From: a virus
DNA length: 64,000 nt
IMG/VR virus record: IMGVR_UViG_3300021962_000027
Reading direction: 5' to 3' (one strand)
Shown here: piece after piece, positions 18,475-56,416 of the stretch
Numbering within the stretch: the stretch's first letter is position 1
Layout of the letters: each line of letters opens with the position of its first letter
The notes under the pieces: model-generated
Told to the model about the DNA's origin: nothing
Database searches by the model: none
Seen by the model: the letters and a program-made list of their open reading frames with translations, nothing else
Translations under genes and position numbers: made by a program

Positions 18475-18876
18475 TTAAACAATGTCAGTTTTAATAAACG
18501 AATCCACAATATGAATATATAAATCTTCTTGTATTGGTGCGATTAACTCACCATAAACTTTAAAGGGGTCTGCTAAATCAAATAATGTTAATTTAAACTC
18601 ACCTAAAAACACACCTGGTTTATCGGTATCATCTTTAGTGAATTGGTAAACCACTATATAATGTTTGTCACCATTTTCATCACATGGGTTTTCAAGAACT
18701 ATCTTAGCTTCTTTATTGGCAACTTTATAGACACCAGTTTTTTCATCTTTCATTGCGAAAGTTGCAACACAGTTTTCAATTAATTCTTCGAAACGTCTGA
18801 AATCATTACGACCATCTCTAAAAACTTTCATTTTTAAAATAGGTAATGTTGAGTTTTGTCTTATACTGAATATCAT
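18475..18876 (-). CDS. virion structural protein, BppU-N-terminal-like Ig fold
   Basis: FSIRQNSTLPILKM...ATFAM...YQF...DTDKPGVFLGEFKL pattern, with a late promoter motif at 18892-18898. Confidence 0.5.
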   Translation of the reverse strand: MIFSIRQNSTLPILKMKVFRDGRNDFRRFEELIENCVATFAMKDEKTGVYKVANKEAKIVLENPCDENGDKHYIVVYQFTKDDTDKPGVFLGEFKLTLFDLADPFKVYGELIAPIQEDLYIHIVDSFIKTDIV

Positions 18877-20384
18877 TAGAATAATTTATTAATAAATATC
18901 TTTCTACCACCGTTTATTGTCCTTAGGTTATAAATATTAGTCATATTACTAACTATTTTTTTAACCTCTACACTATACAAAGGTACACAATACATCTGAA
19001 AATCCTTTACACCACCTAAAAATGTTCCAGCGAAGAATTTCTCAAGTACGGTGTTTATTTTCTTAGTCTCATCTAAATATAACGCATCTAAAAGATTTTG
19101 CGTACCACCACCAAATGAGATATTAAAAGGGACACCTTCTTGGTATTTACTATCAACATCTAATTCATGCGGTGTTACCTCAACAAAATCATAGTTTCTC
19201 AAAACCATTTTACCGTTTAAGTAAATTGATAACGTACCTCGTCTGTACTTACCATATAATAGTTCACAAGAATCCTTGTAGGCGAAATCCCTTTCAAACA
19301 CACTACTTACATGTAAAAACTTTTTCTCATTAACATCTATTACTGGTTTTTTTGTGTAACCCTCTTCTATTGTAAAATATTTTGTAACTATTAAAGAAAT
19401 TGTGTGATTAGAACAAGCGTCATCTGGTTGTTGGATGAATGAGTTTGTTGTGATACCACTAACTTCTTGTGTTTGACCAGTGTAACATATATCCGTTGGA
19501 TATATGGTTCTGTAACCAATTCTACCATCGTTGGTTATTCTTAAACCAAACGCATTGTAATATAAATCGGAATACTCCTGGTGGTATTGTAAAACTTGAG
19601 ACTGTGGTGTATATTTTCTACCAGTATACATTAATCCGTTATAATAGTTAAAATAACCTATATATTTTGAACTACCATTTAGGGTAAGCATACCATTATA
19701 TGTGTATATATTTTGTAATTCTTTTGGTATTATGGAATAACTATCATTTAATTTTTTAACCTCAACAACTGTTTTATCAGCATATTTGTTTTCAGATCTA
19801 GTACCCATATAAAAAATAAAACCAGTATTACCTGTAAACATCTCGTTCAGTGTAATACCTGTAGTGGAACCTGTGGTGGAACCTGTGGTGGAACCTGTGG
19901 TGGAACCTGTAGTGTTCATTGGGAAGTGTAGTAACATGTTAACACTAAAACCCTTTCTACCTCTTGTTGGAAACCACTCAACAGGTTGTTTGTGTATTTT
20001 ATAAAACCCTTGATAAAAACCACCTTTCAATTGATTATAATATTGGCCATTATCCGATTTTAAGTGTTCTATCTCATAAGTGAATTGCCCTGTATAACCA
20101 GAAACTTCGTGAAAACAAAAAGTATCACCGCTTTCAACAACATATGTTACATCTGGATCAATTTTACCATTACCATTTGGTATGAAAAAATTATCATAAC
20201 CATTAAGTCCTATATAATCCAATTCAACATTTGTTGCTTGTGTTATACCTGGTCTAGAACATAGCCCTTGAGTAACATCAATTTTAATTAAATGACACTC
20301 ACTATAATCACGATAAAAATCTCTACAATCTTTTGTGACCGTTAAATCAAAATATTCACTATTATCTAGGGCTGTATAAAACAT
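18876..20384 (-). CDS. putative virion structural protein (concanavalin/LamG-like features, (TTGS)n repeat)
   Basis: Located after the neck gene. GTLSIYLNGK, ISFGGG and F.GGV..FQMY..PL resemble LamG. Rich in [ST]GxT motifs. Confidence 0.55.
   Translation of the reverse strand: MFYTALDNSEYFDLTVTKDCRDFYRDYSECHLIKIDVTQGLCSRPGITQATNVELDYIGLNGYDNFFIPNGNGKIDPDVTYVVESGDTFCFHEVSGYTGQFTYEIEHLKSDNGQYYNQLKGGFYQGFYKIHKQPVEWFPTRGRKGFSVNMLLHFPMNTTGSTTGSTTGSTTGSTTGITLNEMFTGNTGFIFYMGTRSENKYADKTVVEVKKLNDSYSIIPKELQNIYTYNGMLTLNGSSKYIGYFNYYNGLMYTGRKYTPQSQVLQYHQEYSDLYYNAFGLRITNDGRIGYRTIYPTDICYTGQTQEVSGITTNSFIQQPDDACSNHTISLIVTKYFTIEEGYTKKPVIDVNEKKFLHVSSVFERDFAYKDSCELLYGKYRRGTLSIYLNGKMVLRNYDFVEVTPHELDVDSKYQEGVPFNISFGGGTQNLLDALYLDETKKINTVLEKFFAGTFLGGVKDFQMYCVPLYSVEVKKIVSNMTNIYNLRTINGGRKIFINKLF
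19857..19914. repeat. 12-bp tandem repeat (acctgtggtgga, about 4.8 copies) encoding (TTGS)n
   Basis: Directly visible in the sequence. Confidence 0.95.
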
Positions 20385-21475: not shown

Positions 21476-21483
21476 TTCACTAA

Positions 21484-21498: not shown

Positions 21499-21518
21499 CT
21501 TTCAAATAAACAAACAGT

Positions 21519-24505: not shown

Positions 24506-24570
24506 TAATAATAAATTTTTAGCACAAAGTCAATTCATAAATAAATTAAACTATTTATCTATAAAGAACA

Positions 24571-25092
24571 ATGGAAAGAAAAACTAGAATACCAAATACT
24601 AGGTTGAATAGGTTTTACGATGAAGAAGATTTTCAACTTGAACTTGATATGGCTACTGAGCTAATCGAGGGTGATATGAACTTTACCGTTGTTTTATTTA
24701 GAATTGATCGTGCTAACACGCAAGTAGATGATGTTTATTGGGAGAGTAATTCTGGTGATATTAGATTTAAAGCACCTGTTGAACTTAAAGTTATACTAAA
24801 CCTAGAAAACGGTGAGAACAAATCGTATTCACCAAATGGTAATTTAAGATATCAGGATTATGGTAATCTAGAATTTACAGTTTTACAAAAACAGTTAGAT
24901 GAGAAGACCGTTGAAATTAATTATGGCGATATTGTTGGTTACGCTGACAAACAAAATAATTTTAAATACTTCACAGTTTTTGATGATGATACAATAAACT
25001 CGGATAATCCTAGTACACAATTTGGTTATTCTGGATATTTCAGAAGAATTAAATGTACTAATGTTGATCCAAATATATTTAACGGCATATAA
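24571..25092 (+). CDS. head closure/neck protein (gp14-like)
   Basis: First gene of the tail operon; size and position before the terminator and sheath genes; late promoter motif at 24552. Confidence 0.5.
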   Translation: MERKTRIPNTRLNRFYDEEDFQLELDMATELIEGDMNFTVVLFRIDRANTQVDDVYWESNSGDIRFKAPVELKVILNLENGENKSYSPNGNLRYQDYGNLEFTVLQKQLDEKTVEINYGDIVGYADKQNNFKYFTVFDDDTINSDNPSTQFGYSGYFRRIKCTNVDPNIFNGI

Positions 25093-25094
25093 TT

Positions 25095-25862: not shown

Positions 25863-25968
25863 AAATAATAAAACTTTTTTTAAAATGAATCGATCTTACG
25901 GTTTTTTGGTAAAAAATGTGATATTTATGAATAAGTAAAATTAAATAATAAATAAAAATTAACTAAAT

Positions 25969-28900
25969 ATGGCAAACAAAGTTTATGCATCTCCAGGTGT
26001 TTACACAACAGAAAAAGATTTAACTTTCACTACTGAAACAGTGGGTGTTACTACTTTAGGTGTTGTTGGTGAAACCGTAAAAGGTCCAGCATTCCAACCA
26101 ATTTTCATCAGAAACTTCGATGAGTTTAAAACGACATTTGGTGGGACAAATCCAGAAAAATTTAAAAATACACAAATTGTTAAGTATGAATTACCATACA
26201 TCGCAAAACAGTATTTAACACAATCAAATCAATTGTACGTAACTAGACTACTAGGTTTATCAGGATATGAAGCTGGTATGGCTTGGACTGTTAAAACTTT
26301 AGGTGCATGCGATGAATCAACATTATCACATACTGGTATTACTCAGACTCAAATTGAGTTTCGTTTTAATACAGCAACAAATTCATTTTATGTTGTTGAT
26401 CCAGGTGGAAACATTGACTTGATTGATTACATTTCAAGTTTAACTGGTGTTAATACAACTGAATTTGATTCAGTTTTTAACACATATTTCACTACAATCG
26501 GTGGATATACAGGTGCTAATTTTTATGATAAAAAACATGCAATGTATTGGGGTCTATTGACTAACGATCTACAAAATGAGATGGATACTGATATCGCACC
26601 TATTAATGTATACGATGCGACTTATGTTGATGCTTATGAATTACCTAATACGGTACCTGCACAAGATAGAGACGCTTATGTGTTAAATAATGAATTGGTT
26701 TATAACCCTATTACTCAAACATATAGCGGGCCTAGTTTTGGTTTATTTTGTCACACATTTAGTTCAGCTGGCGCTAGTACCATTAAAGGTAAATTAGAGT
26801 TATACACAATGACTTTAAATTGTGATCCATATACTGAAGGACATAATAAAACAATTGCTACTATTAGAAGTAGAGGTAATTATGTTTCTGATGTGTTAAA
26901 ATACAAAGTTAATACTTTGGATATGATCGCACCAATAGGTTTAGATAGTAACCCTTATTTAGCTTTTGAGTTAACGGGGACAACAGCTAACCCATCTGGT
27001 GGTACGTTCTCTTATACTGTTTCTTTGAAAGAGGGTAATGCTAACTATATTAAAAATGTAATTGGTACAACACCAGCAAACAAAGATTCTTTAATCTATG
27101 TTGAGGAAGTATATGATAACTCATTAAAAATGGGTTGGTTAGAAGGTAAGATTAAAGGTTTATACACAGAATTAACTTCTGTTAATGAATGGGATCATTA
27201 TAAATTCCAATATCAATCACCTGTTACACCATTTATTGTTTCAGAATTAAGAGGTGGTTTACCACAAAGGTTATTTAGGTTTATATCTATATCTGATGGT
27301 ACAACAGCAAACTTTGAAATTAAAGCATCTATCGCAAATGTTGATTTATCTAAAAAGACATTTGATATTTATGTAAGATCATTCAATGATACTGATAAAA
27401 CACCTGTTTTATTAGAGAGATTCACTGATTGTACAATGAATGAAAGTTTAGATAACTACGTTGGTAGAAAAATCGGTACTATCGATAATAAATACCCATT
27501 GAAGAGTAGTTATATCGTCCTTGATTTAGCTAATAACGCACCGATGGATGGCGTACCTGCTGGTTTCGAAGGTTATGAGTTCAGAACTAATAATGAAGTT
27601 AATTATACAGCAACATTAGTACCTGAAATGCCATACAAATTGAAGTATTATGCCCCAGGTGATACAATTTATAACCCACCTTTCGGTAATGCTGTTATCT
27701 CTAGTGGTGATAGAATCCCTAAAAATTATTTAGGTTTCTCAAGTCAATTTGGATTTGATAAAGATTTATTACTGTTCAAAGGTAAAGTTAGTATCTTAGG
27801 TGATAACGCATATAATATTGGTGATGATTACACAACAAAAACTAAAGGTTTCCACATGGATATCAACGCACAATCAATTGTTGATTCTGTAACTGGTGAA
27901 CAAGTTTTTGCAACTGGTGTAGCTTCATTTAACGATGCAACAACTGTTGACGGTACAGTTTCTCACCCATACAATAACATGAGAACAAGAAAATTCACAG
28001 TATTATTCTCAGGTGGTTTTGATGGTTGGGATGAATACAGAGTTAACAGAACAAACACAGATGAATATAAAATCGGTAGAACTGGTTTCGTAGCTGGACA
28101 ATTTGATACATTCACAAATGTTGAATACGCTGAATTGTTTGGTACTTCTGACTACTATGCAACAATGTATGGTATCAGAACATTCCAAAATCCTGAAGAA
28201 ATCGCTATTAACATCTTAGCAACACCTGGTATTGACATGTTAAACAATACTGACTTGGTTAGAGATGCAATTGAAGTGGTTGAAGAGAAGAGATTGGATG
28301 CAATTTATTTACCAACATTACCTGATATTAAATTATTAAATAATAATAACCCTTCAGATACTGAAAGTTGGTACTATGCTGAGGATATCGTTAGCGAATT
28401 AGAGAATACTGATATTGATTCTAATTACACTGCGGTATATTACCCATGGATCCAAATTACAGATACAGACAATAACGCAAACTTGTATATCCCACCTACT
28501 GCTGAAGTAGTAAGAAATATGGCTTATACTGATAACGTAGCGTTCCCTTGGTTTGCAACTGCTGGTTACAATAGAGGTTTAGTTAAATGTAATAGAGCAC
28601 GTATTGTTCTTGACCAAGAGGCTAGAGATGTATTATATCCAGGTAGAATCAACCCATTGGCTACTTATTCAGATGTTGGAGTTGTTATCTGGGGTAATAG
28701 AAACTTACAAGTTAAATCAAGTGCTCTTGATAGATTGAACATCAGAAGATTGTTGTTACAAGCAAGAAGATTGATTATGAGTGTGTCTAAAAGATTGTTA
28801 TTCGATCCAAACGATACCACAGTTAGAAATCAATTCTTGTCTTTGGTTAACCCAATCTTAGATAACATCAGAAAAGAAAGAGGTTTAACAGACTTTAGAG

Positions 28901-29040
28901 TAAGTGTCGCTATGGACGTTGAAGATAATGATAGAAATACCTTAAGAGGTAAAATATTTATCAAACCAACTCCAACATTAGAGTTCATTGAACTTGAGTT
29001 CACAGTTACACCACAAAACGTTTCTTTCGATAACATTTAA
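25969..29040 (+). CDS. contractile tail sheath protein (gp18)
   Basis: SPGVYTTEKD, TVKGPAF.P, YYPW, PWFATAGYNRG, RINP, WGNRNL, LNIRRL, PTPTLEFIEL. Confidence 0.97.
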   Translation: MANKVYASPGVYTTEKDLTFTTETVGVTTLGVVGETVKGPAFQPIFIRNFDEFKTTFGGTNPEKFKNTQIVKYELPYIAKQYLTQSNQLYVTRLLGLSGYEAGMAWTVKTLGACDESTLSHTGITQTQIEFRFNTATNSFYVVDPGGNIDLIDYISSLTGVNTTEFDSVFNTYFTTIGGYTGANFYDKKHAMYWGLLTNDLQNEMDTDIAPINVYDATYVDAYELPNTVPAQDRDAYVLNNELVYNPITQTYSGPSFGLFCHTFSSAGASTIKGKLELYTMTLNCDPYTEGHNKTIATIRSRGNYVSDVLKYKVNTLDMIAPIGLDSNPYLAFELTGTTANPSGGTFSYTVSLKEGNANYIKNVIGTTPANKDSLIYVEEVYDNSLKMGWLEGKIKGLYTELTSVNEWDHYKFQYQSPVTPFIVSELRGGLPQRLFRFISISDGTTANFEIKASIANVDLSKKTFDIYVRSFNDTDKTPVLLERFTDCTMNESLDNYVGRKIGTIDNKYPLKSSYIVLDLANNAPMDGVPAGFEGYEFRTNNEVNYTATLVPEMPYKLKYYAPGDTIYNPPFGNAVISSGDRIPKNYLGFSSQFGFDKDLLLFKGKVSILGDNAYNIGDDYTTKTKGFHMDINAQSIVDSVTGEQVFATGVASFNDATTVDGTVSHPYNNMRTRKFTVLFSGGFDGWDEYRVNRTNTDEYKIGRTGFVAGQFDTFTNVEYAELFGTSDYYATMYGIRTFQNPEEIAINILATPGIDMLNNTDLVRDAIEVVEEKRLDAIYLPTLPDIKLLNNNNPSDTESWYYAEDIVSELENTDIDSNYTAVYYPWIQITDTDNNANLYIPPTAEVVRNMAYTDNVAFPWFATAGYNRGLVKCNRARIVLDQEARDVLYPGRINPLATYSDVGVVIWGNRNLQVKSSALDRLNIRRLLLQARRLIMSVSKRLLFDPNDTTVRNQFLSLVNPILDNIRKERGLTDFRVSVAMDVEDNDRNTLRGKIFIKPTPTLEFIELEFTVTPQNVSFDNI

Positions 29041-29047
29041 TAAATCT

Positions 29048-29080: not shown

Positions 29081-29254
29081 CATAGACGTTTTACCATGTA
29101 TGGTTTATTGACTACGGTAAAAAGAAAGTAACAAAGAAAAATATATATAATAGTACCATTTATAAGTACATATATATATAATATAATAATAATAATGTAT
29201 ATATAGTACTATATAATATAATAATAAAATAGTACCTCTCGTTAAGACCCTTAA

Positions 29255-34889: not shown

Positions 34890-34941
34890 AAACAGTTTGT
34901 TTTGTATTTATAGTTAACTAATATATAGTAAATTTAAATAA

Positions 34942-43600: not shown

Positions 43601-46165
43601 TACGGTAGATATTATATCAACCAATTCGATGTTAAGTACGATGGTATTTTTGGTGAGTTATATAAAACATTCGGTGAGTATGTTTATGCATTAACAGGTG
43701 AAAATGAGACTGGTATTACGTATGTAAATGAAAAATATAGAACATTATCTGATATCCTTAGAAAGAAAAATTATGCAAAACCTATCGCAACTAGTGGTGA
43801 TACAATATCATCAATAATATCTAGTATTAGCGGGAATACAATACCTGTAGGTGGTTTTAGTGGTTTAACTTTTTATGAGGTTTTTACTAATATTGCTAGT
43901 GATAAAAGATATCTTGAATTAGGTGACATTTTTAAAAAACACCCATTCTTCTTAGGTAAAAACAACAATAAACCAGAGCAGTTCGAAGCATTAAAACTTA
44001 ATTTACACCCACAAGAATATATGTTTAAAGTTGGTGATGGACTTGGTATACCATATAAATTTGAGGCTTTAACAAATGCACCCAATAATGGTAGAAGCAC
44101 CAAGTATTTTCAAGGTAGCTTCACAAACGGTTACACCAATTATTTTGATGGCGTATCTGAAACAGGTGGTATCTTCTTTAAAGAGAGCTCAACATCACAA
44201 AAAATATATGAATCGATAATGGATAATTTCGCCTTAGAGTTTAAAACTAAGATAAGATTAAACTTATTACCGATTTGGGATGCTAAATACGACACTAACC
44301 TAAACACTTTTGACGGTTTCAACACTAAATTAGATGATGTTCATAGAATTATGTTTAGAACTTATTTAACTAACTTATTTGATTCTTATTATAGCGGACT
44401 TAAATCAAATAATGAGGAGACTACAAATACCATAAACGATAAAATCGCTAAAATGAGTGTCATACTTTCTGGTTTATCACTACCATTATATGGTTATGAC
44501 GCTAAATACACAGAAGATGGTAAGGCTCAATTATATGAAATAGTACCAAATGCTAAAAAACTCACAACAAAGGTAACAGATGCTAATATGTTTGGATATA
44601 ACCCTTACGATCAATATAAGAAATTAAATATTAGTGGTGGGGAGATAATTAATTTTTCAGATATTAACACCATATTCCAAAATACTAGTAGTAGTGGGTG
44701 GGACGGTAGTATATCACCAACATTAATGGATTATATAGGTTTGGGTAATGGTTTATACTTCTTTAAACAATTAACTAATGAGTGTATTACTGGTACAACA
44801 AATAACCCATTCCCAACTGGTGAAACAACAAATGTTATGTACGAATACGTTAGGAATATGGAATTCATACAACAAGTATTTGGTTATGAGAACATAAGTG
44901 ATTTACCAAACCAGTATAATTTTAAAAATTGTTTACCGAAAGCTGTTGCGTTCTCAAATAGCGCAATTGTGATGGCTAATCTACACAACTATTATTTTGA
45001 AACACCGTTTTCATTTAACCCTAACGAATTTGGTGTGTCACCATCAGCTAGATTATTGGAAACAACAGCTGATAACTTAACAACCAGATTATCGGATGGA
45101 AGTATTGGTAATACCATTAATAATTCATTTAGTACTAACGATTATGAAATGAAATATACGTGGGAAAAATTAAATTACGAGATGTTAGAATTCAGTAATA
45201 GGACTCTTGATTTAATGTTATCCGATGATTTAGAGACTAAATTAAATGATGTTGATTTTACGTTCACACCATCTTTATCATTTGACACGCAATTAGAAAA
45301 CCTAACAGGTACTACAATTGATGGAAGTGCAACTGGTAATACAATATCTAAATCATTATTTTATTATGGTGATAACAAAAAACCAAACCAATTTTTAACC
45401 GATGTTAATTATTATTTATTTAATGAAGATAACCCTAACATAACTGGAACTAATTTAGCTAGCATTTTAGGTAATCTAAATAATTTGTTAAAATATAATT
45501 TCACGATAAATGAACACTTTATTTCATCTTTACCAGATAATAATAAAACTGTTTTATCGGGTACAACTGTTAATGGTGGCACAACTGATTTAATACAATT
45601 AAGTGCTATGCATGAACTTATTTTTATGGAGTTTATTGTTAATTTAAACAATGATAAGAACATTCATATAGAAGCGTTAAAAACACAATTCCTTGAATCA
45701 ATATCCATTCCAGCTAATATAAAAGACAAACCTAAGAAGGTTGAGAAATATATCGCACAAAAAACAAAAGAAATTGAAGGTGTTATAAAAGACACGTTTA
45801 ATTTAATATCTAAATTTGTTATTGAATTTGATTCGGTTATAGGTGATTTATATTTTTATAACATGGATATAAAAAATCAAACAATTAAGAAAATAAATAA
45901 AAATGTTTTTGATAGCGCTGATAATGAGTACTTGATGTCTTCTGATGAGATGAAAAATAAACTAATAAAGGGTGGCCCAGAGGATTATACCTTAACTATG
46001 AGAGAAACTAGTAAATTAGATAACACCATCGTTAGAAACTTAAAACTATTTACAAAATACAAGAGTGACCCTATTATTAATATAAGCTCTGTACTAGAGG
46101 CTGAGACCGAACCAGTTGCAACAAAGACTGAATTAGCGAAGCAATGGCCAGAATTATATGATTAA
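37664..46165 (+). CDS. giant baseplate/tube-initiator protein (2833 aa) with N-terminal repeats, an OmpA-like insertion and a CBM-like module
   Basis: Tube-initiator-like halves (WFPPY...W....LGRPEPIYTY.NTERSGTLSW and PPVCVLRIGDFY...SLNISYD...QPM). Located after the TMPs and before the LysM gene. Confidence 0.7.
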   Translation: MSLNSISGQFRNTVLNLNLQSPPDIVTGLVNLTNSVTVSAYLDSLGQDAVVNNFSVQNPGDVDTAGNPARLANLNRTLNTPTDITTGITDLTVNQQYVASFISGRGSVTTINDYTNVNPGDVLTEAVNPRLLDLNKNLNTPTDITAGVQALTPNAQFASQYLSGRGSFSVINDFNVINPGDVLTDAVSPRLLDFSRNLNTPTDITAGVNDLTPNAALAAQYLSGRGSFSVINDFVVINPGDVINDAIAPRILNFAQTLNTPTDITAGVQDLTPNSTLAAQYLSGRGSFAPVNTSPNINPGDVINDAVAPRTLNFNRTLNTPTDITAGLNDLSGAYAAQYLAGRGSFSVINDYININPGNVQTDAVAPRTLNFNRTLNTPIDITAGLNDLSGTYAAQYLAGRGLDTVINDFNNINPGNVVVQSLAPRTLNLNRNLNTPIDITAGLTNLSGSFASQYLAGRGLDTIINNFQVLNPGDVMTEGLAPRTLNLSMTLNTPIDITSGISTLTANASLAAQYLAGRGTNAAINTSPNINPGDVVTIANPQRISLFNRNIIKDPLNDATDQFTIANPGTVAIGADTVINDFTVLNQSELAPFTQQWINSNIRNRYQAELTELVDKTGDIFLNTDPNTPQNPYLTEDKLNNADPTQLVMGDFLNLPTASTPLSALLGADLNVANLLTEPGVKNDTLLAQIGALELKFHLEARIAAKLAQEALGLTTLDDMVTNPLKLAEAIKNPSSIIERGNADITTFKGGLGKVASFISDVSGLGGLTSAFFTDDSIVLRPTCFSESEYGTYDIEKKIEDRDINRIEETGRGQRFSLFLNLGINKYTPDFVVKLGRSDKKMLESSAKTQTGVEDVMFKTYISGGINGTFYLLQDINGLQVKANTELTRAITKGPANQENYYSEPGVETVSKYSSVQTSFVWRGSTMETFLDPVNKQTLTDDWDGRIKDNDTLSKTKTFRDCSILDVTQTLLEAGVENRAARAIDQTKTKFTDGYNFSPKGSGVITPYRTERLSKDGKDVVGYKYFVPGLDAAGNRDQKRMYDEVELCRTWTKAKPFTKITDLIRWKELHRKERNSVLDRYGNLNIHPSALNVNEGYGRLGDGLGDAVVEAFGEKRARKYMFSIENLAWREARLFADLPPCEKGSNGGRIMWFPPYNIRFTDDTTTNWTAHQFLGRPEPIYTYQNTERSGTLSWDIVVDHPTILNLLVSKEFASLTDGEVDELLAAFWAGCLEYDVFELARIWGVFSESDIEYFQKVIEDLDIRLPNEVIRKKIKSSGVNNDKKVEIETDDKAAPAIPQFNLFFENDIPLPSNRYKVKTFTVDPYDKYFQIYTDLANGVNIDKNSEYQEEAVWGNTYGSGLADKNWIRYDKTIGNKMPEGSRYFFEKDREKFPAKTFGYEQQFNSLKDSDYSAKNYALTKDFNLNIDMVAHASPSAPGNSLDNIKKYNDKLAARRFVSVTKWFIPNVLSNDTIKCYNVNDGLEITPETINSIFSSGLEETNTITILRGDINEPTKRQRIILTVSAADGLTTDDVFPTDPTSDYATLFGMPKIFNINGEDIQYYEIAYGDKIYYMVKTYDEYDKVEGQFKPNGTLIKNSLIGTAIAIRTDNGKATQIYRRQADVICGNLSSNASYARRVEVNSLLAPKEIPIERVTPPDQDPPAEIEKKFVTTNVTKREIAQRILNKLLTECDYFEYLSKETPILYDSLKSKLKYFTPAFHSMTPEGLNTRLTFLQQCMRPGDTITKNQGQGNCDAKNTSFGKPPVCVLRIGDFYHTKIIINSLNISYDPLVWDLNPEGIGVQPMLAKINLSFKYIGGQGLRRYVDQLQNALSFNYYANTDVYDERTFANTDRRERDLINLEQDFFAQNSLDLIPIVAQAKLITPSTEYLPVPAGTIGIISQRLLPKLAGGTYFNSLVSATPFDPVTDFPAEACVVYQGQYYVRKVAKYPESGPTLPTDTNTWTAVDQSNFGEFAFREEYGRYYINQFDVKYDGIFGELYKTFGEYVYALTGENETGITYVNEKYRTLSDILRKKNYAKPIATSGDTISSIISSISGNTIPVGGFSGLTFYEVFTNIASDKRYLELGDIFKKHPFFLGKNNNKPEQFEALKLNLHPQEYMFKVGDGLGIPYKFEALTNAPNNGRSTKYFQGSFTNGYTNYFDGVSETGGIFFKESSTSQKIYESIMDNFALEFKTKIRLNLLPIWDAKYDTNLNTFDGFNTKLDDVHRIMFRTYLTNLFDSYYSGLKSNNEETTNTINDKIAKMSVILSGLSLPLYGYDAKYTEDGKAQLYEIVPNAKKLTTKVTDANMFGYNPYDQYKKLNISGGEIINFSDINTIFQNTSSSGWDGSISPTLMDYIGLGNGLYFFKQLTNECITGTTNNPFPTGETTNVMYEYVRNMEFIQQVFGYENISDLPNQYNFKNCLPKAVAFSNSAIVMANLHNYYFETPFSFNPNEFGVSPSARLLETTADNLTTRLSDGSIGNTINNSFSTNDYEMKYTWEKLNYEMLEFSNRTLDLMLSDDLETKLNDVDFTFTPSLSFDTQLENLTGTTIDGSATGNTISKSLFYYGDNKKPNQFLTDVNYYLFNEDNPNITGTNLASILGNLNNLLKYNFTINEHFISSLPDNNKTVLSGTTVNGGTTDLIQLSAMHELIFMEFIVNLNNDKNIHIEALKTQFLESISIPANIKDKPKKVEKYIAQKTKEIEGVIKDTFNLISKFVIEFDSVIGDLYFYNMDIKNQTIKKINKNVFDSADNEYLMSSDEMKNKLIKGGPEDYTLTMRETSKLDNTIVRNLKLFTKYKSDPIINISSVLEAETEPVATKTELAKQWPELYD
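37715..39300 (+). repeat. about 9 tandem 174-180 bp (58-60 aa) coding repeats
   Basis: LNTPxDITxG cores (TP codons) at 37901, 38081, 38261, 38441, 38621, 38795, 38969 and 39143, plus a degenerate first unit. Confidence 0.95.
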
Positions 46166-49410: not shown

Positions 49411-49411
49411 A

Positions 49412-52400
49412 ATGGGATTAGCTTTAGCAAATTTTTTAAAAGAAAGATATCTTAATAGTACCGACTCGGACTTAGGTGCCGTGATGTCAACTGCATATGA
49501 CGAATACAATAATAACATATTGTTGTCAACCGCAGAAAAATATCACGATGCGTTTAAAACCGAAACTTTATTTAAAAATGTACATGATCTACCTGTTAGA
49601 TACGGTACCCAATCAACCGCATACCAATCACCATCAACACCCGTTAACCACGCAATATTTGCGCAAAATATAGTAAATGAATCTAAAACTGGTAAATTAT
49701 TTAAAACAGCACAGCTGTTTATTTCTAGTTTAGCAACAGAGTCTAATAATGGGGTGGTATCACCAGCACAATTAGGTAAGATATTTAAAAGAACCCAAGG
49801 ATTAATTGAGGTACCCACCCACTTGGTGTTATACATTGGTGGATTATATGATTTTTATTATTATGGAACTCCAGATAATAATATTGATTTAAAAACAATT
49901 AACGGTGTTTCAAATAAAGATGGTAGTGATTTATTATCCAACCCTTTATTATTGAACAAACATTATGGTTCATACGCTTTCGATAACAATAACGCTGGTT
50001 TAAAAGCCGCAACGTTACCATTCGTAAAACCTCTAACCCCAAGATTCATTGATGATTTAATGTCATTTGATTATGAATCATATAGAGACCAGAAATTACC
50101 TAAAAATTATCGTGATACATATTATGATTATGAATTTAAACAGGATATCTCTTTAAGTAATAACATATCATCACATATACCATTTTCTGGTTACGGTGTT
50201 TTAAATAATTATTTAAACTCAATGTCATACCTATACTTCAATGAAGGTCTTGATGGTCAAACAAATGAAAATAGTAGTTTAAATGACGATGGTTTACCTT
50301 ACCATATAATTGGTAATTTTAGGGGTAAATTAAAAACGTTTAAAACATATAATGATCAGAATATAAATTTCCTAGGATCATATAATAGTTACGGACCTAA
50401 AGTTAAATTTAATATATCAACAGCAGACTCTGATTTAAACACTATAACTAGCGCCATAACATTTGACAATGATTTTTTATACACGGATAAAAATAATAAA
50501 GAAAAAATAGAATTCTTTTTACTTCTATCCAAGATAAAATGTAATTTTCTTGGTGGTTATATGGACACGGTTGATGTTTATAACATAGTTAGAAAACTGT
50601 GTGCTATTAATAATTTAAAAGCTAAACAGGATGATATTGAAATACCTGATTTTATCACTTTATTAATACACAGTTTAATACCACCAGATGGTAATGAACC
50701 AGACACAGATTCCAATAGAGTTAATAGGAACCTAACAATCTTAGATAAATATAATGTTGATTCAAGATCGTTCATCGGTTATATAGATATTAAAACTAAG
50801 GAGTATAATGAGTTATACACAATCATATTAATGATTAACCAGTTAACTGGTAACGACCTATATGATTACGCATCAAGACTATTGGTATCAATGTGGTCAA
50901 GAGAGTTTAACCAAAAAGAGAATAATAAACTTAAAGCATTAGACGGAAGAGGTTCATTTGTTGTTTACCCAAGTTGTGGTGGTGATATTAATGTTAATAA
51001 TTTATTTACACAAAACGATTTTGATTACGGTTTGGGTAATAATAAAGCGTCTATAAACCCTAAGTATAAGTACCAAAAAACTAATGTTGTACATACGGTA
51101 TTTGAAACACAAGGTGATGCCTATTTATCAAATTTAGTACATAATGATCCAGAATTTTTGGTAATCGATTCTAAGGTATCAAATGATATAACAAATTACT
51201 GGAACAGGACCTATTTATATTCGCAGATAAACCCTGGTTTAGCTGAATTTGTTTCCCTTAATAACTCACAAAACTATTCTGATAGAATAATACCTAAAAA
51301 TGTTACGGCAAATGATACCGCTTTAATGGGTATGTATTTACCCGTATATTTTAGACCAGAAAACGCCCCATCAAATGGCACATTCATCAATTATTTTGAT
51401 AGGTATGATGATGTTTATATCATTGCAAATACAACGGATCCAGAGGGTGTTAAGAGACTTAAATTCGATAACAAATCTTTAATATATAATACCAGTAGAT
51501 TATTTTGGTTTGATTCGCCAAACACTAGTGGCGTAATATACCCAGAGACTATTAAATTCGCCCCAAAAAATGCAACACAAAAACCAGATTTAATATCCGT
51601 TGATTATTACGAGTATAAACATTTCCATTTAAAAAACGGTAGTGTTTATGATTATAAAAACGGTGAGTTGTTTTATGACATGTCTAATACCGATGAAGAG
51701 GTTGTTAGATCTTATAACGATTTTAAAGCTGGGTCCACATTATATTCGACTTTTGAAAACTTAGTTAGTAATGCTGACAGTATCACTAATTATTATTCGG
51801 ATAACAAACAAATACAAGATGCGGATTCTGCAAAAATTTTATTAGATATTTTCGACATTGATAAATTAGAAGACTTCAGAACACTATTCAAAAAATTTGC
51901 TGATGGTACCCAAGAAAATTATTTTAATAAAACATTTAATACGTTTGATTTTAAATCATTGTTAAAACACACAACGATGTTTGGGTATAGCAACTTACCA
52001 AATAGTGTTGAATTATACGGTAGATCTTTCGGTAAAGATGAGTTATTGGCGCTGATTTGTGGTTACTCTGGTAATTTCATAGAATTCGCCTCTATAACTG
52101 GTTTAGCTAAGGTTATTAACACCGCATTAACTTTAGGTCAAGAAGATAAGGCTAGGTTCGTAATAGATGAATTTTTAAACGCAAAAATAACCGTAAATAA
52201 TTACTCAACAGGTGGACCATTAACAATAGAGAGTTCCGATTTAAATAACCCAAATGGTTTAAGATTAAATTCGTTTATTTTTAACCCAATTATAGCATAT
52301 TCAACAAACACAAGAACTTATGAAAATATCGTGGCATCGCTTGGTGATGTTTTGTTATTCAGAACAATTTTATTCGGTGATCAAAATATTTCAGGGTATA

Positions 52401-55400
52401 GTGATCTAGATCCTGGTATAGATGAATTGGTTAAAAAATACGTATTGGTTAAAGGTATGACAAAAAATATTGATCCTAATTTGGGTGAAGATTTTGTTAT
52501 AACGGAATTGACTAGAGTTTTTTTTAGGAAATTAAATATACAATTAAATGAAGGTAATTTAAAATTATTAATAACATATTTAAGATCTTTCATAGCTGAA
52601 ACTTTATTTAAATCGATAGCGTTAAATCTATATAACGGTAAAACAAGATTATTTGATTTAACTAAAGATAATTACGATTCGGCTTTAATTCACCCCTCAA
52701 AAGAAGGTGCTAAAAACCAAATTTATGACCATCAGAAAAAAAAATATATCGTTATTTCTGAAATTAAAAACGGTGTTTTAATACCAAAAGATTCTATATC
52801 ATATGTTAATGAAAAATTTGAAGATTTCCAGTCCGATATAGTGTTTAACGATTGGGTTAAAAAATTTAATAAAGATTTTGTTGAAAAAGCATTAACCACT
52901 TTAAATGGTTCCTTAGGGTCCTTACATGAAAAGTTATTAGAAAAATTAACCACAAATTATAATGATACTGTTGATGGGGATGGTTATGAATATGAAGATA
53001 TTAAAACCGATGAAATTGATATTAGAACAGGTACATACTATAGGATTAAAACACTTTATGATAAAAATGTTTCATATACTAATATTAATGCCACCGATGA
53101 TCGATTAATAAAGAAAAGTAGTCATGAACTAGGTTCTGCCGATGTTAATGCGATTTTAAATAGCCCGTTATTTTTTAACTTTAATGTACAACAACAAGAT
53201 ATTTGTGATGATAATGGTTTATTAACACCTAGTAGTGATAAATTAAAAGATTTAGTCGATTACACCCAAGTCTTGGATAGAGGTAATAACCCTTTTGGTA
53301 CAAAAGTTTTTGTTGATATAGTTTCATTTAAACAAACATTAACAGATGATTTATATAAGGAAGGTGAGATAAATAAAACCACATCAAAATCTATGTGGAC
53401 AATTTTATCTAAGTTAGCTAGTGATCATGAATTCTTATTGATGCCATTAACATCTTATATAAACTTAAGTGGTTCTGTTACCGAAAAAGATAGTCCATAT
53501 GATTTAGCCCATGACATGTTCGGTGTTTTTAACACACTTGAAATGTGGGAATCAAACCCCTCTTTCATATTCCAATTAGGGTCATTAACATCATCGGTTG
53601 GTAACGGTGGTAGTAAAAAGAATTCAGCTAAAAGTAATTTTGATTTAAGTAACTCTTTTTGTTTAGATATTGATCAAAATAGTCTGGATATAGATGGCAA
53701 TGGTAAAATCCTTAATGAAGACGTACCTTCAGATGTTAGAAATTCTAATGTCTCATCTTTTATCGTGGATTTTGCGAACCCTAATCAAAACATGTTTGAG
53801 AGTATACAGTTATCAACTGATGAGTTCGCTAATACGGAAGAAAGTATCAACGCACAAGTTGCCATAGCTGGTGGTCAACCAGTTTTATCAAGCGGTAAGT
53901 TATTTAGTGCGATGGAAAACAGATCATATTCTTGTACCGTTAATAGTCTAGGTAACGCTACAATACAACCATTATCATATTTTTACTTAAGAAATGTTCC
54001 TTTATTTTATGGTACCTATTGGATAACAAATGTTAGCCACAAAATATCTGCAAATAATACCATGACGACAACGTTTAAGGGTGTTAGACAACCGATAGCT
54101 AGAAAACCGACACCAAATGTTGCGGTTATTAGAGCATTACTTAAAAAAGCTAAAGAATTATCTGGCCAACAAGGTTATTTAGATAGGGATGATGCAACAC
54201 CAATACCAACGTCTGGTGAAATATATACCAATAGATCTTTCACAGGTGTTAGTGGTACAACTAGTGAAACCAAATATGGTTTATTGTATCAAAGAGCTAC
54301 TGATGAAGGGGTGAATAAATATGTTACATATAACGGTTTATGGGTTATCGCCTCATACTTAAAATTAATGACTGGTGGTGATGAAACTGATACGGTATTA
54401 ATTAAAACATTAATATCATATTTACATAATAACGCATCGGAATTGGCCGTATCGTGGGATATAGATTATACAGCACCATATTTTGTAGATATTGTTGCAT
54501 ATGATTTATATAATAAACTTGGGTATGAAACTAACGAACTATCTTTAAGTGAATTATTGGATAATTACCCAACAACAGCTGGTGATATGTATCAAACAAC
54601 CTTATATAAATTACTCGAATTCCAACAAAAACCGAATGATTTATTAGCTTATTTAACTTTAACAGCTGAAGAAAAATATAACCCAAAAACAACCTTAATC
54701 ACAAATAGTAAAGGAACGGCTATTACTAATGATGAGACATTACCTAAGATAACATTTCCTGGTGATTTTGGACAAGATAATCTTAGTGCGATAACAAGAG
54801 TCAATTATTGGGTTAGCGATACAACCAAAAGTAACCTTAAAACATTTAATGGATTATCAACTTATGAATTGGTTAGTTATTTTGACACAACACCAGCCAC
54901 ACCAACTGTTAGTATAGTACAACAAACATTACAAGAAGCGGCAATTCAAAACGCTATCCAATTGGATTTGGCAAACCCTGCCGAGTCAACTGGTGTTGTA
55001 GCACCTACGTTATACCCAGCAACAAACGCTAATTTAAATACACAGTTTAAATTTTCATTACAAGCACCAGCACAACAAACAGTACAACAACAGCTCTTTG
55101 CGGGGTTACCACAGTTTAATAATAACACACAAACTACAAGCGGTACAACACCTAGAGAACTTGGTTCACAAAAAGATGGTTCGTTTGATTTCTCTAAAGC
55201 CTTTTCAAAAACTTTTACAATAGAAGGTTATGATGAAGATTTGATTGCATATGTTATGGGTGGATATGGTAAGAGTAAAAAATATGCATTCTTTAAACTA
55301 TGTAATGATAGCGAAAAATTTGAGTATGATACCATAAAAATAAACAAACATGCTCATATTGATTTAAAAATACTGGGTCAAGATAATGGTAACGCTACTG

Positions 55401-56416
55401 GTGATACCATCAACAAGTGGACAATAAAAAATGTTACCAGCGAACAAACTGATAATATTTACGTATCACCCGTTCGAAACGGTAGCGGCCAACAAGGAAG
55501 TGGATTGGTAGTTGGTTGGGTTAACCCTTTAAAAGATATTTATGTTACCTCTGGTTATGGTTACCAAGCATCGAGAGGTAGGGTTCATGAGGGTAATGAT
55601 TTAAGAGCGGCTCTTGGTACTGATGTTTATGCTGTATTGGACGGTGTTGTCGTATCAAGCCAAGCGTTTGGTGGTTATGGTTATGCGGTAATATTATCAC
55701 ATCCAAATCACGGGCTATCAACATTATATGGTCACGTAAGAGAAAGATTTGTATCAGCTGGAGATACTGTATCAGCTGGTCAGCTAATCGCTAAATCTGG
55801 TGATGAGGGTTCACCAGGACAACCACATTTACACTTTGAGGTGTTGAAAAACGCTATTAGCTTAGACAATAGTAATTATTTTAGTTCAGCTAACCAAGCT
55901 TTATTAACCGACCCAGAACCATATCTTAAGGGTGAGGTTATCCCTAATAATAGTGGTGGGGATAGCCAAACAGCGGGTAGCGGAGATGTTGTTTCAAAAG
56001 GTTTGGATTATACAGTTGCGTTCTTAACAGATGTACTGAAAGGTCTTGGGGTTAGCTCACCTAATTCAAGCCAGATTAAATTTATGAAAGCTTGGAGACA
56101 GCATGAAGGTGCTAAGGCTACTTATAATCCATTTAACACAACACAAAAAGCAGCTGGGGCCACTAATTTCAATAGCGTTGGTGTTAAAAACTTTATAAAC
56201 AGAGCACAAGGTTTAAAGGCTACATTAGATACATTGAATAATGGTAGATATGGTGCTATAATAACAGCGATTAAAAATATCCGAAATGATGATGATATTA
56301 ACGCTGCTATGCAGGCTGTTAATGACTCACCATGGGGTAGTAACTTTAGCCCAGTTAATTATAAATCATGGAAAACTTTAAATAATTATATTTATGGTTA
56401 TGTTAATGAGGGTTAA
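49412..56416 (+). CDS. giant baseplate hub/tail lysin (2334 aa): hub C-terminal domain, M23 peptidase and lysozyme-like domain
   Basis: SYSCTVNSLGNATIQP..YFYL.NVP.F.G.YWITNVSH (hub); HEGNDL, YGH and PHLHFEV (M23); AWRQHEG...NPFNTTQ...GV.NF (lysozyme-like). Confidence 0.8.
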   Translation: MGLALANFLKERYLNSTDSDLGAVMSTAYDEYNNNILLSTAEKYHDAFKTETLFKNVHDLPVRYGTQSTAYQSPSTPVNHAIFAQNIVNESKTGKLFKTAQLFISSLATESNNGVVSPAQLGKIFKRTQGLIEVPTHLVLYIGGLYDFYYYGTPDNNIDLKTINGVSNKDGSDLLSNPLLLNKHYGSYAFDNNNAGLKAATLPFVKPLTPRFIDDLMSFDYESYRDQKLPKNYRDTYYDYEFKQDISLSNNISSHIPFSGYGVLNNYLNSMSYLYFNEGLDGQTNENSSLNDDGLPYHIIGNFRGKLKTFKTYNDQNINFLGSYNSYGPKVKFNISTADSDLNTITSAITFDNDFLYTDKNNKEKIEFFLLLSKIKCNFLGGYMDTVDVYNIVRKLCAINNLKAKQDDIEIPDFITLLIHSLIPPDGNEPDTDSNRVNRNLTILDKYNVDSRSFIGYIDIKTKEYNELYTIILMINQLTGNDLYDYASRLLVSMWSREFNQKENNKLKALDGRGSFVVYPSCGGDINVNNLFTQNDFDYGLGNNKASINPKYKYQKTNVVHTVFETQGDAYLSNLVHNDPEFLVIDSKVSNDITNYWNRTYLYSQINPGLAEFVSLNNSQNYSDRIIPKNVTANDTALMGMYLPVYFRPENAPSNGTFINYFDRYDDVYIIANTTDPEGVKRLKFDNKSLIYNTSRLFWFDSPNTSGVIYPETIKFAPKNATQKPDLISVDYYEYKHFHLKNGSVYDYKNGELFYDMSNTDEEVVRSYNDFKAGSTLYSTFENLVSNADSITNYYSDNKQIQDADSAKILLDIFDIDKLEDFRTLFKKFADGTQENYFNKTFNTFDFKSLLKHTTMFGYSNLPNSVELYGRSFGKDELLALICGYSGNFIEFASITGLAKVINTALTLGQEDKARFVIDEFLNAKITVNNYSTGGPLTIESSDLNNPNGLRLNSFIFNPIIAYSTNTRTYENIVASLGDVLLFRTILFGDQNISGYSDLDPGIDELVKKYVLVKGMTKNIDPNLGEDFVITELTRVFFRKLNIQLNEGNLKLLITYLRSFIAETLFKSIALNLYNGKTRLFDLTKDNYDSALIHPSKEGAKNQIYDHQKKKYIVISEIKNGVLIPKDSISYVNEKFEDFQSDIVFNDWVKKFNKDFVEKALTTLNGSLGSLHEKLLEKLTTNYNDTVDGDGYEYEDIKTDEIDIRTGTYYRIKTLYDKNVSYTNINATDDRLIKKSSHELGSADVNAILNSPLFFNFNVQQQDICDDNGLLTPSSDKLKDLVDYTQVLDRGNNPFGTKVFVDIVSFKQTLTDDLYKEGEINKTTSKSMWTILSKLASDHEFLLMPLTSYINLSGSVTEKDSPYDLAHDMFGVFNTLEMWESNPSFIFQLGSLTSSVGNGGSKKNSAKSNFDLSNSFCLDIDQNSLDIDGNGKILNEDVPSDVRNSNVSSFIVDFANPNQNMFESIQLSTDEFANTEESINAQVAIAGGQPVLSSGKLFSAMENRSYSCTVNSLGNATIQPLSYFYLRNVPLFYGTYWITNVSHKISANNTMTTTFKGVRQPIARKPTPNVAVIRALLKKAKELSGQQGYLDRDDATPIPTSGEIYTNRSFTGVSGTTSETKYGLLYQRATDEGVNKYVTYNGLWVIASYLKLMTGGDETDTVLIKTLISYLHNNASELAVSWDIDYTAPYFVDIVAYDLYNKLGYETNELSLSELLDNYPTTAGDMYQTTLYKLLEFQQKPNDLLAYLTLTAEEKYNPKTTLITNSKGTAITNDETLPKITFPGDFGQDNLSAITRVNYWVSDTTKSNLKTFNGLSTYELVSYFDTTPATPTVSIVQQTLQEAAIQNAIQLDLANPAESTGVVAPTLYPATNANLNTQFKFSLQAPAQQTVQQQLFAGLPQFNNNTQTTSGTTPRELGSQKDGSFDFSKAFSKTFTIEGYDEDLIAYVMGGYGKSKKYAFFKLCNDSEKFEYDTIKINKHAHIDLKILGQDNGNATGDTINKWTIKNVTSEQTDNIYVSPVRNGSGQQGSGLVVGWVNPLKDIYVTSGYGYQASRGRVHEGNDLRAALGTDVYAVLDGVVVSSQAFGGYGYAVILSHPNHGLSTLYGHVRERFVSAGDTVSAGQLIAKSGDEGSPGQPHLHFEVLKNAISLDNSNYFSSANQALLTDPEPYLKGEVIPNNSGGDSQTAGSGDVVSKGLDYTVAFLTDVLKGLGVSSPNSSQIKFMKAWRQHEGAKATYNPFNTTQKAAGATNFNSVGVKNFINRAQGLKATLDTLNNGRYGAIITAIKNIRNDDDINAAMQAVNDSPWGSNFSPVNYKSWKTLNNYIYGYVNEG

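Follow-up and report, generated by a model that had tools for sequence, protein, structure and literature searches.

Closest described systems

Bacteroidota possess a general O-glycosylation system that acts in the periplasm on surface proteins at the sequon D-[ST]-[AILVMT], and in flagellin glycosylation with nonulosonic acids (NulO) by Maf the acceptor is a Ser or Thr without a strict sequon, although neighbouring hydrophobic residues are said to play a part. In C. difficile, the GT-A/WcaA-type enzyme SgtA, whose gene adjoins that of its substrate, O-GlcNAcylates Thr (Ser is accepted) in BclA3 peptides such as TGATGLIGPTGATGA, and the resulting glycans coat a spore-surface fibre (PMC7157674). 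The TibC/Aah autotransporter heptosyltransferases (BAHT, TIGR04414) modify serine only, TibC leaving Thr unmodified, and one mapped acceptor in TibA reads N-S-G-G (PMC4358343). In mycobacteriophages, phage glycosyltransferases decorate virion proteins at the C-termini of capsid and tail-tube subunits, with surface masking as the proposed role; as that work is summarized, no sequon was defined (Freeman et al. 2023, via PMC12619734). Related large aquatic phages have predicted hosts in the Bacteroidota (PMC12619734).

We analyzed a motif, [ST]GxT, in virion proteins encoded by a 64,000-nt window of an uncultured giant aquatic phage. Comparison with the peptide table of PMC7157674 showed that in the SgtA-BclA3 system (and BclA of Bacillus anthracis) the acceptor Thr stands in the T-G-x-T context of the phage motif, and its enzyme is of a soluble GT-A/GT2-like type, the GT2 genes of the window being matched by class only. 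The BclA3 acceptor lies in G-x-T repeats of a proline-rich collagen triple helix of period 3, whereas the phage sites are isolated tetrapeptides or period-4 loop arrays in globular beta-rich proteins, and Ser at +3 is not enriched in the phage motif. The collagen-like fibre of relatives consists mostly of G-T-S, G-S-S and G-E-S.

Phage-encoded glycosyltransferases (here GT2, GT2_5, GT29-like and GT1-like) are common ground with the mycobacteriophages, but in place of C-terminal capsid and tube acceptors we find no motif in the tube, one to three sites in the capsid protein of relatives, and internal sites concentrated in the distal tail. BAHT substrates resemble the window's proteins in being beta-rich surface proteins with many loop sites, and are hyperglycosylated by a cytoplasmic enzyme; BAHT acceptors are exclusively serines, whereas about two thirds of the phage sites begin with Thr. 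The Bacteroidota sequon is similarly short (three residues) and sits on surface proteins, but D[ST][AILVMT] itself is not enriched (15 versus 11.3 expected in the 2833-aa protein, similar in relatives).

Motif excess in the window

Motif-bearing proteins and sites are as follows.

18876..20384, minus strand: 502-aa ConA-like/LamG jelly-roll protein, 10 [ST]GxT sites (AF2 model and Foldseek)
19449..19481, minus strand: conserved core pair Y-TGQT-QEV-SGIT, aa 302 and 309 (alignments, model)
19824..19835, minus strand: TGNT, aa 184, lineage-specific site (alignments)
19851..19914, minus strand: tandem array N-(TTGS)4-TTGI, five head-to-tail [ST]GxT units (TRF)
20091..20132, minus strand: conserved core pair E-SGDT-FCFHEV-SGYT, aa 85 and 95 (alignments)
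25969..29040, plus strand: tail sheath, 1023 aa, 3 sites (PHROG tail sheath)
26332-26343, 26974-26985 and 26995-27006, plus strand: sheath sites, N-terminal insertion domains
37664..46165, plus strand: 2833-aa baseplate/tail protein, 11 sites
45305..45343, plus strand: insertion hot-spot TGTT-IDGSA-TGNT in the 2833-aa protein (comparison with relatives)
49412..56416, plus strand: 2334-aa protein with M23 peptidase domain, 3 sites, not above expectation
54251-54262, 55139-55150 and 55397-55408, plus strand: sites of the 2334-aa protein (motif count)

The excess of [ST]GxT over chance was confirmed as real, and is narrower than first claimed. Every per-protein count in the first-pass annotation was reproduced exactly, and its chance estimate (under 1 per 1000 aa) lies near the 0.3-1.4 per 1000 aa computed from composition. 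The 502-aa protein carries 10 sites (SGDT, SGYT, four TGST, TGIT, TGNT, TGQT and SGIT) against 0.70 expected, a number that 0 of 500 shuffles reached. Tandem amplification, already noticed at 19857-19914, was recovered there by TRF (period 12, 4.8 copies, 95% matches); this single recent slippage array contributes five of the ten sites, and with it removed five remain against 0.43 expected (p = 9e-5). Ten of the 11 sites of the 2833-aa protein fall in aa 1952-2632 (43517-45568), often paired 9-12 residues apart, with 0.89 expected for the C-terminal third. As a look-elsewhere control, [ST]GxT was ranked against 76,000 patterns of the form [ab]-c-x-d; it topped the ranking in this C-terminal third (p = 3.7e-8) and took second place when all 12 structural proteins were considered together.

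These two proteins account for the window's excess. The sheath (3 versus 1.1 expected) and the 2334-aa protein (3 versus 1.9) are not significant alone, so the original claim of strong enrichment in virion proteins stands for the 502-aa protein and the 2833-aa C-terminal third but not for these two singly. No sites occur in the tube, the hub, the 971-aa protein or either tape-measure paralog. Pooled, the 12 structural proteins hold 27 sites versus 8.7 expected, and the non-structural proteins 3 versus about 3.3; two of those three are the Walker-A TGKT that are the sole matches in PhoH and the UvsX-like protein, and the 1034-aa polymerase has none.

A sharply defined peptide motif

The motif requires S or T at position 0, G at +1 and always Thr, not Ser, at +3, and favours a hydrophobic residue at -1. 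Enrichment is 4-6x for [ST]GxT and 8-11x for Phi[ST]GxT (Phi, aromatic or aliphatic), and the near-miss patterns [ST]GxS, [^ST]GxT, [ST]Gx[^ST] and [ST][A/N/D/S/P]xT all lie at about 1x. Every Gly codon and each of the two Ser codon families appears about as often as in the background, and x is free; at position 0 ACT is favoured over ACA, and ACTGGT is the commonest hexamer. Because motif codon usage matches background, these data show that selection acts on the peptide and not on DNA.

Relatives, controls and a targeted loss

The excess spans hundreds of relatives of this phage. All 58 related loci compared (26-89% identity) were enriched, and proteins of relatives reached 24 versus 3.0, 21 versus 3.4 and 15 versus 2.8 expected. 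Motif positions turn over among relatives while density is maintained, and proteins with unrelated folds share the motif; across loci, the motif richness of LamG homologs did not correlate with that of their neighbours (Spearman 0.02). As controls, T4 showed no overall excess (17 versus 12.5 expected) and neither did Microcystis phage Mel-JY01 (3 versus 6.3). T4 gp36/gp37 have a mild excess of their own (8 versus 2.3). A search for a cultured member of the clade found none.

One lineage has purged the motif from a single protein. A homolog in the related genome G006 is 81% identical to its counterpart in G002 and retains 0 of 15 sites. Motif glycines were kept in 3 of 15 cases versus 66 of 84 for other glycines (Fisher p = 2e-5); they were replaced by D, K, S or P with flanks conserved (local identity 0.88-0.97 around several destroyed sites), and G-to-D changes hit four motif glycines versus 0 of 84 others. 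The motif is therefore dispensable for folding. Loss of the enzyme cannot explain the purge, because it is limited to this protein, and the LamG-like protein and sheath of G006 retain their sites.

Sites on the proteins and the particle

The 502-aa gene is translationally coupled to that of a gp13-like head-tail adaptor, and its product belongs to a family of 522 proteins (Atlas lead Laminin_G_3). The AF2 model (pLDDT 85, pTM 0.85) matched ConA-like/LamG lectin modules and phage LamG-like virion proteins in Foldseek. Its sites follow strands, in coil, or fall in a loop modelled with low confidence. At the aa 85/95 pair, DSSP gives strand 81-83, coil, strand 90-93 and coil, and the array occupies a loop behind a conserved HFPM strand (pLDDT <50 at aa 159-174). 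In-register arrays of 2-7 units occur in 26 of 62 family members compared, with x being T, S, V, I, A, E, Q, D, Y, R, L or N and [ST]G.T kept; likewise, relatives vary x at the aa 302/309 pair (Q, A, V, E, S, T, D) and retain T/S, G and T. The counterpart of TGNT (aa 184) is PNNS or PDNS in many relatives, and family members with roughly 35% identity have their 13-19 sites elsewhere in the sequence. Four sites of the 502-aa protein lie in its highly conserved core, where a structural role would explain them too.

Three sites are positionally conserved in the 2833-aa family. Its insertion hot-spot has grown to (TTGx)n arrays in relatives and reads (GTS)14 in the motif-losing lineage. Sheath sites all fall in outer domains, with none in the conserved core (aa 624-1021), and sheaths of relatives have 5 versus 1.3 expected in the same places.

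The motif-bearing parts are thus outer sheath domains, distal baseplate and fibre proteins, and the lectin-fold protein; inner tail parts and enzymes lack it. No site occurs in portal, scaffold or protease, and relatives have 1-3, all internal, in their major capsid protein. Because heads are almost without the motif, the whole-virion glycan shield first envisaged does not hold.

Candidate glycosyltransferases

The sugar island of the window encodes the following.

1322..2152, minus strand: GT2-family glycosyltransferase, 276 aa, candidate enzyme (Pfam PF00535; synteny)
4658..9577, minus strand: NulO cassette of NeuB, FkbM methyltransferase, GT29-like protein, cytidylyltransferase and MptE/Maf-like protein (Pfam)
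9574..10281, minus strand: GT2_5-type glycosyltransferase, 235 aa, candidate enzyme (Pfam PF13712)
11123..12346, minus strand: GT1-like protein, 407 aa (weak Pfam match; core to close lineages)

NeuB, the cytidylyltransferase and the Maf-like protein (28.3 bits versus a Pfam cut-off of 34.6) recall the Maf/NulO flagellin system. This cassette is a variable insert, present in the window, G003 and G010 and missing from the syntenic slot in G001, G002 and G006, where the motif excess is equal or greater. The NulO cassette is not required for the motif, and the proposed coupling of island and sequon, which called for the two to co-occur, fails for this cassette; a Maf/NulO system as reader of the motif is not supported.

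TIGR04414 enzymes (297-331 bits, cut-off 200) lie beside the capsid gene in G001, G003 and G010-G013, and in relatives a glycosyltransferase operon adjoins that gene. None is encoded in the window. TibC/GT9 types are absent from the near-complete, motif-rich G016, G018, G019 and G020, and a TibC-like enzyme is likewise not universal.

GT2 (GT-A fold) is the only transferase class in every motif-rich genome tested, with 3-5 genes in 8 of 8. The 276-aa gene occurs in every related lineage, and the GT2_5 counterpart in relatives is a 478-aa double-GT2 protein. Since GT2 genes are very common, this co-occurrence is weak evidence, and no single transferase family tracks the motif when the NulO cassette, TibC/GT9 and GT2 are compared across relatives. 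The SgtA type is a GT-A enzyme with a TPR domain, encoded beside its substrate; in the window, 6.5-17.5 kb separate the GT2 genes from the 502-aa gene, and Pfam reports no TPR domain in the glycosyltransferase genes. With a dUTPase/dCTP-deaminase-like gene also in the island, DNA or host glycans are possible substrates of its transferases.

Proposed reading and alternatives

The motif is non-random, sharply defined, selected as peptide, located in loops, lineage-specific and removable as a unit. Its sharp definition, peptide-level selection, controls, spread and targeted loss argue that it is a discrete unit, probably read by some other molecule, and not a fold requirement; it behaves like an enzyme-read site, most plausibly a putative one for sugar attachment. 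We put the probability at roughly 45% that Phi-[ST]-G-x-T is a displayed recognition site, the acceptor for O-glycosylation by phage-encoded soluble glycosyltransferases. It would be a short linear site on loops of outward-facing tail, baseplate and fibre proteins and the lectin-fold protein, which these enzymes would modify in the cytoplasm, before or during assembly. Gain and loss of point sites, together with head-to-tail array expansion and contraction in disordered loops, may tune site density. We infer a glycosyltransferase as reader, and the same goes for any choice of enzyme, of one of the two hydroxyl residues and of sugar. The original proposal of a virion O-glycosylation sequon thus keeps its peptide-level unit on outer parts and a GT-A precedent, but loses island coupling and the whole-virion shield.

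Unlikely, though the strongest competitor, is a reader other than a glycosyltransferase: another Ser/Thr modification, docking of a chaperone or decorating protein, or a Thr-rich patch that binds host polysaccharide. A discrete, removable, surface-located peptide unit fits such a reader as well, no transferase family tracks the motif, and the purge of one G006 protein, with other sites kept, suits a protein-specific interaction. However, the window revealed no kinase or other enzyme that modifies Ser/Thr, 10-24 docking sites per protein plus disordered-loop arrays would be an unusual arrangement for binding a chaperone or partner, and the documented enzymatic T-G-x-T precedent is glycosylation only.

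Slightly more doubtful is an unmodified strand-turn-strand element intrinsic to the clade's beta-rich domains and read by nothing. The hydrophobic residue at -1 (often also at +4), placement between short strands, the conserved sites in the 502-aa (four) and 2833-aa (three) families and the T4 gp36/gp37 excess are in its favour. It sits poorly with the removal of 15 of 15 sites between conserved flanks, with arrays of up to 7 units in a predicted-disordered loop, with intolerance of the structurally near-equivalent Ser at +3, with the motif's presence in unrelated folds, and with T4 as a whole and Mel-JY01, which lack an excess.

An artefact of low complexity, slippage or post-hoc pattern choice is very improbable and largely refuted: although half the 502-aa sites come from one 95%-perfect 12-nt repeat and the sheath and 2334-aa protein are not significant individually, the excess survives array removal, tops the 76,000 patterns in a non-repetitive region and recurs across 58 loci and in several proteins unrelated to one another. 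Least probable, and also largely refuted, is an origin of the motif in a DNA word for methylation, restriction or recombination. The ACT preference and the ACTGGT hexamer speak for it; against it, each of the four Gly codons, the two Ser families and every Thr codon occur near background, and x is free.

Implications

Extending the glycosylation reading to the whole clade, we consider it possible, if still tentative, that Phi-[ST]-G-x-T genuinely serves as an O-glycosylation sequon, with which a very large group of aquatic jumbo phages, uncultured and spanning hundreds of contigs, coats the outer tail in sugar. If so, cytoplasmic glycosylation of phage particles would have its first defined sequon, and glycosylated virion proteins could be read straight from sequence. 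Sites that are gained, lost and tandemly amplified would then form an evolvable coat.

Excess of [ST]GxT in outer tail proteins

The source of the window is an uncultured large aquatic myophage. Its sequence (GC ~30%) combines a T4-like replication set (PolB with a DUF7831 insert, PhoH, UvsX-like and DnaB-like proteins), a contractile-tail module (1023-aa sheath, tube, hub, two tape-measure paralogs, and 2833-aa, gp25-like, 971-aa and 2334-aa M23-peptidase proteins) and, upstream of the tail module, a sugar-enzyme island (GT2, NeuB, FkbM methyltransferase, GT29-like, cytidylyltransferase, MptE/Maf-like, GT2_5, dUTPase-like and GT1-like genes). The sheath core is only ~30-35% identical to the nearest deposited phages. 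Sequence searches of Pfam, PHROGs and PDB with the 502-aa and 2833-aa proteins gave no matches, and tblastn of the 502-aa protein and its distant family members P0088 and P0069 matched no deposited phage.

Structural features of the window
18876-20384 (-): 502-aa LamG-like protein
25969-29040 (+): sheath
29140-29236: AT-only imperfect repeat, period ~25-40, in the 340-nt sheath-tube intergenic gap; a probable promoter or other regulatory region
32187-37632: neighbouring pair of tape-measure-like paralogs (900 and 896 aa), both without [ST]GxT, each showing peptidase or lysin-like similarity around aa 700-800
37664-46165 (+): 2833-aa baseplate/tail protein
38015-39166 (+): small domain of ~60 aa (174-180 nt), repeated in tandem ~5.5 times near the N-terminal end of the 2833-aa protein and giving a strong excess of [NT]PxD (18 vs 1.7) and PGxV (10 vs 0.5)
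49412-56416 (+): 2334-aa M23 protein

The first-pass annotation had described the tetrapeptide [ST]GxT (Ser or Thr at position 0, Gly at +1, Thr at +3) as enriched in virion proteins; its counts were all exact on recount, and the excess proved broader and sharper than it had stated. The 502-aa protein carries 10 sites against 0.70 expected from its own composition, a number reached in none of 500 shuffles, and the 2833-aa protein carries 11 against 2.6, with 10 against 0.89 in aa 1952-2632. The three sites reported for each of the sheath and the 2334-aa protein are present, although neither count is significant alone (3 vs 1.1 and 3 vs 1.9). No [ST]GxT was counted in the two tape measures, the 971-aa protein, the tube or the hub; the polymerase also has none, and PhoH and the UvsX-like protein contain only the Walker-A TGKT, as annotated. 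The tandem array at 19857-19914 is real, a 12-nt repeat that is 95% perfect.

Motif specificity was scored on enriched proteins from the window and two relatives. There, [ST]GxT occurs at 4-6x expectation and [ST]GxS, [^ST]GxT, [ST]Gx[^ST] and [ST]-A/N/D/S/P-x-T all lie near 1x, indicating that Ser or Thr at 0, Gly at +1 and Thr rather than Ser at +3 are each required. Position -1 is hydrophobic in 63-67% of sites compared to a 34% background (p = 3e-6 to 5e-5, three relatives) and in 9/16 sites in the window; adding this residue to the pattern raises enrichment to 8-11x.

Location and spread of the sites

An AF2 model of the 502-aa protein built from a 62-sequence alignment reached pLDDT 85 and pTM 0.85 (a 10-sequence alignment gave pLDDT 27). 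The modelled fold matches lectin jelly-rolls of the ConA-like/LamG type as well as virion proteins of phages that are LamG-like, and Pfam Laminin_G_3 was found in one family member. Sites 85 and 95 fall in coil between short strands and sites 302 and 309 in coil after a strand, while the array at aa 159-174 has pLDDT <50. All sheath sites lie in N-terminal insertion domains, with none in the conserved core. Among relatives, portal, scaffold and protease have no sites and the capsid protein has 1-3 against 0.4, so the proposed shield over the whole virion is not supported: the motif is a mark of the tail's outward-facing parts rather than of the particle as a whole. Transferases of the relatives contain no [ST]GxT.

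The 502-aa family comprises 522 proteins and is found at no fewer than 484 IMG/VR loci. In most of 62 representatives (32-90% identity) there are 5-19 sites where 0.3-1.7 are expected. At ~35% identity, members have 13-19 sites at mostly different positions. The loop after a conserved HFPM strand almost always holds a head-to-tail array of 1-7 [ST]GxT units in which x varies freely (T, S, V, I, A, E, Q, D, Y, R, L, N); (GSS)n or (GTS)n takes its place in some lineages. P0069, from a 202-kb contig, is motif-free, and P0052 and P0053 are motif-poor. The LamG homolog shows an excess in 58/58 diverse loci examined, and its unrelated neighbours are often enriched too (29 vs 5.1, 22 vs 3.2, 13 vs 0.9), with no genome-level correlation between the two. 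Across whole related contigs the excess is limited to a few large tail proteins, such as the 2472-aa (24 vs 3.0) and 2922-aa (15 vs 2.8) proteins of G002 and the 2672-aa protein of G001 (21 vs 3.4), and the remainder of each genome is at expectation. For the second protein with a TTGS tag and for the fibres, all encoded beyond the window, the analysis drew on relatives alone. The counterpart of that second protein, a 462-474-aa protein unrelated to the 502-aa family and encoded at 23336-24760 in G003 and 24540-25928 in G010, has its own (TTGT)5 or TTGVTTGT array.

For comparison we counted the motif in cultured phages. T4, whose virion proteins are not known to be glycosylated, has 17 sites against 12.5 expected in 21 structural proteins. 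In Microcystis phage Mel-JY01, whose sheath is the closest among cultured phages, 18 structural-region proteins hold 3 against 6.3, and one of them, of 2255 aa, is free of the motif. [ST]GxT is thus not a general property of tail proteins, and we rejected a generic fibre property as its cause. Flavobacterium phage immuto shows a mild excess (37 vs 21.2, p = 0.001) and is a possible experimental system. In its genome (vB_FspM_immuto_2-6A, L140), a 546-aa TGxT-rich, collagen-like protein (625-2265) encoded beside the capsid gene is rich in TGAT, TGLT and TGVT, and SGTT recurs in several structural proteins. A Bacteroidota D-S/T-x sequon was also considered and rejected.

Natural purge of the motif in one lineage

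A 2953-aa protein of G006, G007 and G009 has no sites (3.1 expected) and is 81% identical to the G002 2922-aa protein, which has 15.

2698-11559 of G006 (L062-L064), also in G007 and G009: purged baseplate gene, all [ST]GxT erased

Loss often took one change at a fixed position (TGTT to TDTT, SGTT to SDTT, TGST to NDST, TGTT to TDTD, SGLT to NGLT, SGVT to SKLT), with local identity of 0.88-0.97 around several purged sites; the array was deleted or swapped for (GTS)14. Motif glycines were retained in 3/15 cases compared to 66/84 for other glycines of the same region (Fisher p = 2e-5), and four motif glycines but 0/84 others became Asp. Given a survival probability of 0.53 for random triplets at i, i+1 and i+3, losing 15/15 by chance has a probability of ~1e-5. 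Sites 2044, 2056 and 2066 and the array at 2548-2557 are common to the window, G001, G002 and G003, indicating that the motif is ancestral and was lost in G006. The purged phage still carries it in the LamG homolog (7 vs 0.6) and the sheath (5 vs 1.3).

Interpretation of the motif

We consider a putative glycosylation sequon the best single explanation of [ST]GxT, with a probability of roughly 0.45. It is unlikely that the motif is recognised by something other than a transferase. We likewise doubt that [ST]GxT is a loop motif intrinsic to the fold: erasure of all 15 sites from an 81%-identical protein implies that it is dispensable for folding and can be selected against as a unit, which argues for recognition by another molecule over a purely structural role.

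An artefact is essentially excluded. Without its array the 502-aa protein retains 5 sites against 0.43 expected (p = 9e-5), and when all 76,000 [ab]-c-x-d patterns were scored as a guard against post-hoc pattern picking, [ST]GxT took first place (p = 3.7e-8) in the C-terminal third of the 2833-aa protein, a non-repetitive region, and came second in 12 structural proteins pooled. A DNA-level by-product is also essentially excluded and was rejected, since none of the four Gly codons, the two Ser codon families or the Thr codons is missing from the motif sites and their proportions are roughly those of the background, placing selection on the peptide rather than on a DNA word.

Candidate enzymes

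Candidate transferases in the window lie at 1322-2152, 2139-3221, 9574-10281 and 11123-12346. The sialic-acid-like nonulosonic-acid (NulO) cassette at 4658-9577 is an insert that varies among genomes: the window and G003 have it, and G010 has part of it. In G001, G002 and G006, whose motif richness is as high or higher, the slot between PhoH and the GT2_5 gene lacks it; the suggested coupling of motif and cassette therefore finds no support, and the cassette was rejected as a necessary enzyme set. A true TibC/Aah-type heptosyltransferase (297-331 bits, cut-off 200) adjoins the capsid gene in G001, G003 and G010-G013, of which G011 and G012 are complete genomes, and is missing from the near-complete motif-rich genomes G016, G018, G019 and G020; TibC modifies serine only (PMC4358343). 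GT2 is the only transferase class found in all 8 genomes tested (3-5 genes each, usually clustered), which is weak evidence because GT2 genes are common. Searches of PDB and NCBIfam with the core transferases turned up nothing informative, the one match being TagF to the 276-aa GT2 (E = 2.5e-5). A precedent is C. difficile SgtA, a GT-A/WcaA-type enzyme encoded beside its substrate gene that attaches O-GlcNAc to Thr, with Ser also accepted, in peptides of BclA3, for example TGATGLIGPTGATGA (PMC7157674). The island also holds a dUTPase/dCTP-deaminase-like gene, so some of its transferases may act on DNA.

Genes near the transferases
Window 609-1322 (-): 237-aa protein, gene directly abutting the GT2 gene and kept in all relatives; a possible phage sigma factor, with weak sigma-70/ECF likeness that falls under the cut-off (TIGR02937, E = 4e-4)
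Window 8915-9577 (-): 220-aa MptE/Maf-like gene adjoining GT2_5, no homolog in G001, G002, G003, G006 or G010
Window 9574-10281 (-): GT2_5 gene, 235 aa; homologs in the same five genomes have 478-483 aa and two GT2 matches, and it looks as if one GT2 half was replaced by the Maf-like module
G001 191676-200532, G003 2607-10902, G010 4706-12938: conserved operon directly after the T4-type major capsid gene, coding for a GT1-containing protein of 915-921 aa, additional GT1 proteins and the TibC/Aah-type enzyme; next comes a proline-free collagen-like (GTS/GSS/GES)n fibre gene

Implications

If [ST]GxT is a sugar site, virion glycosylation would not be peculiar to mycobacteriophages: it would be common among abundant aquatic phages and could be predicted from sequence, bearing on host recognition, on particle stability and stickiness in water, and on escape from host surface defences. 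With a defined four-residue acceptor, the responsible enzymes would be easier to track down and glycosylated proteins could be engineered in bacteria. Should no sugar be attached there, a tetrapeptide at 4-10x chance in many unrelated outer tail proteins, like its site-by-site erasure in one lineage, is still the sign of a molecular interaction worth finding.
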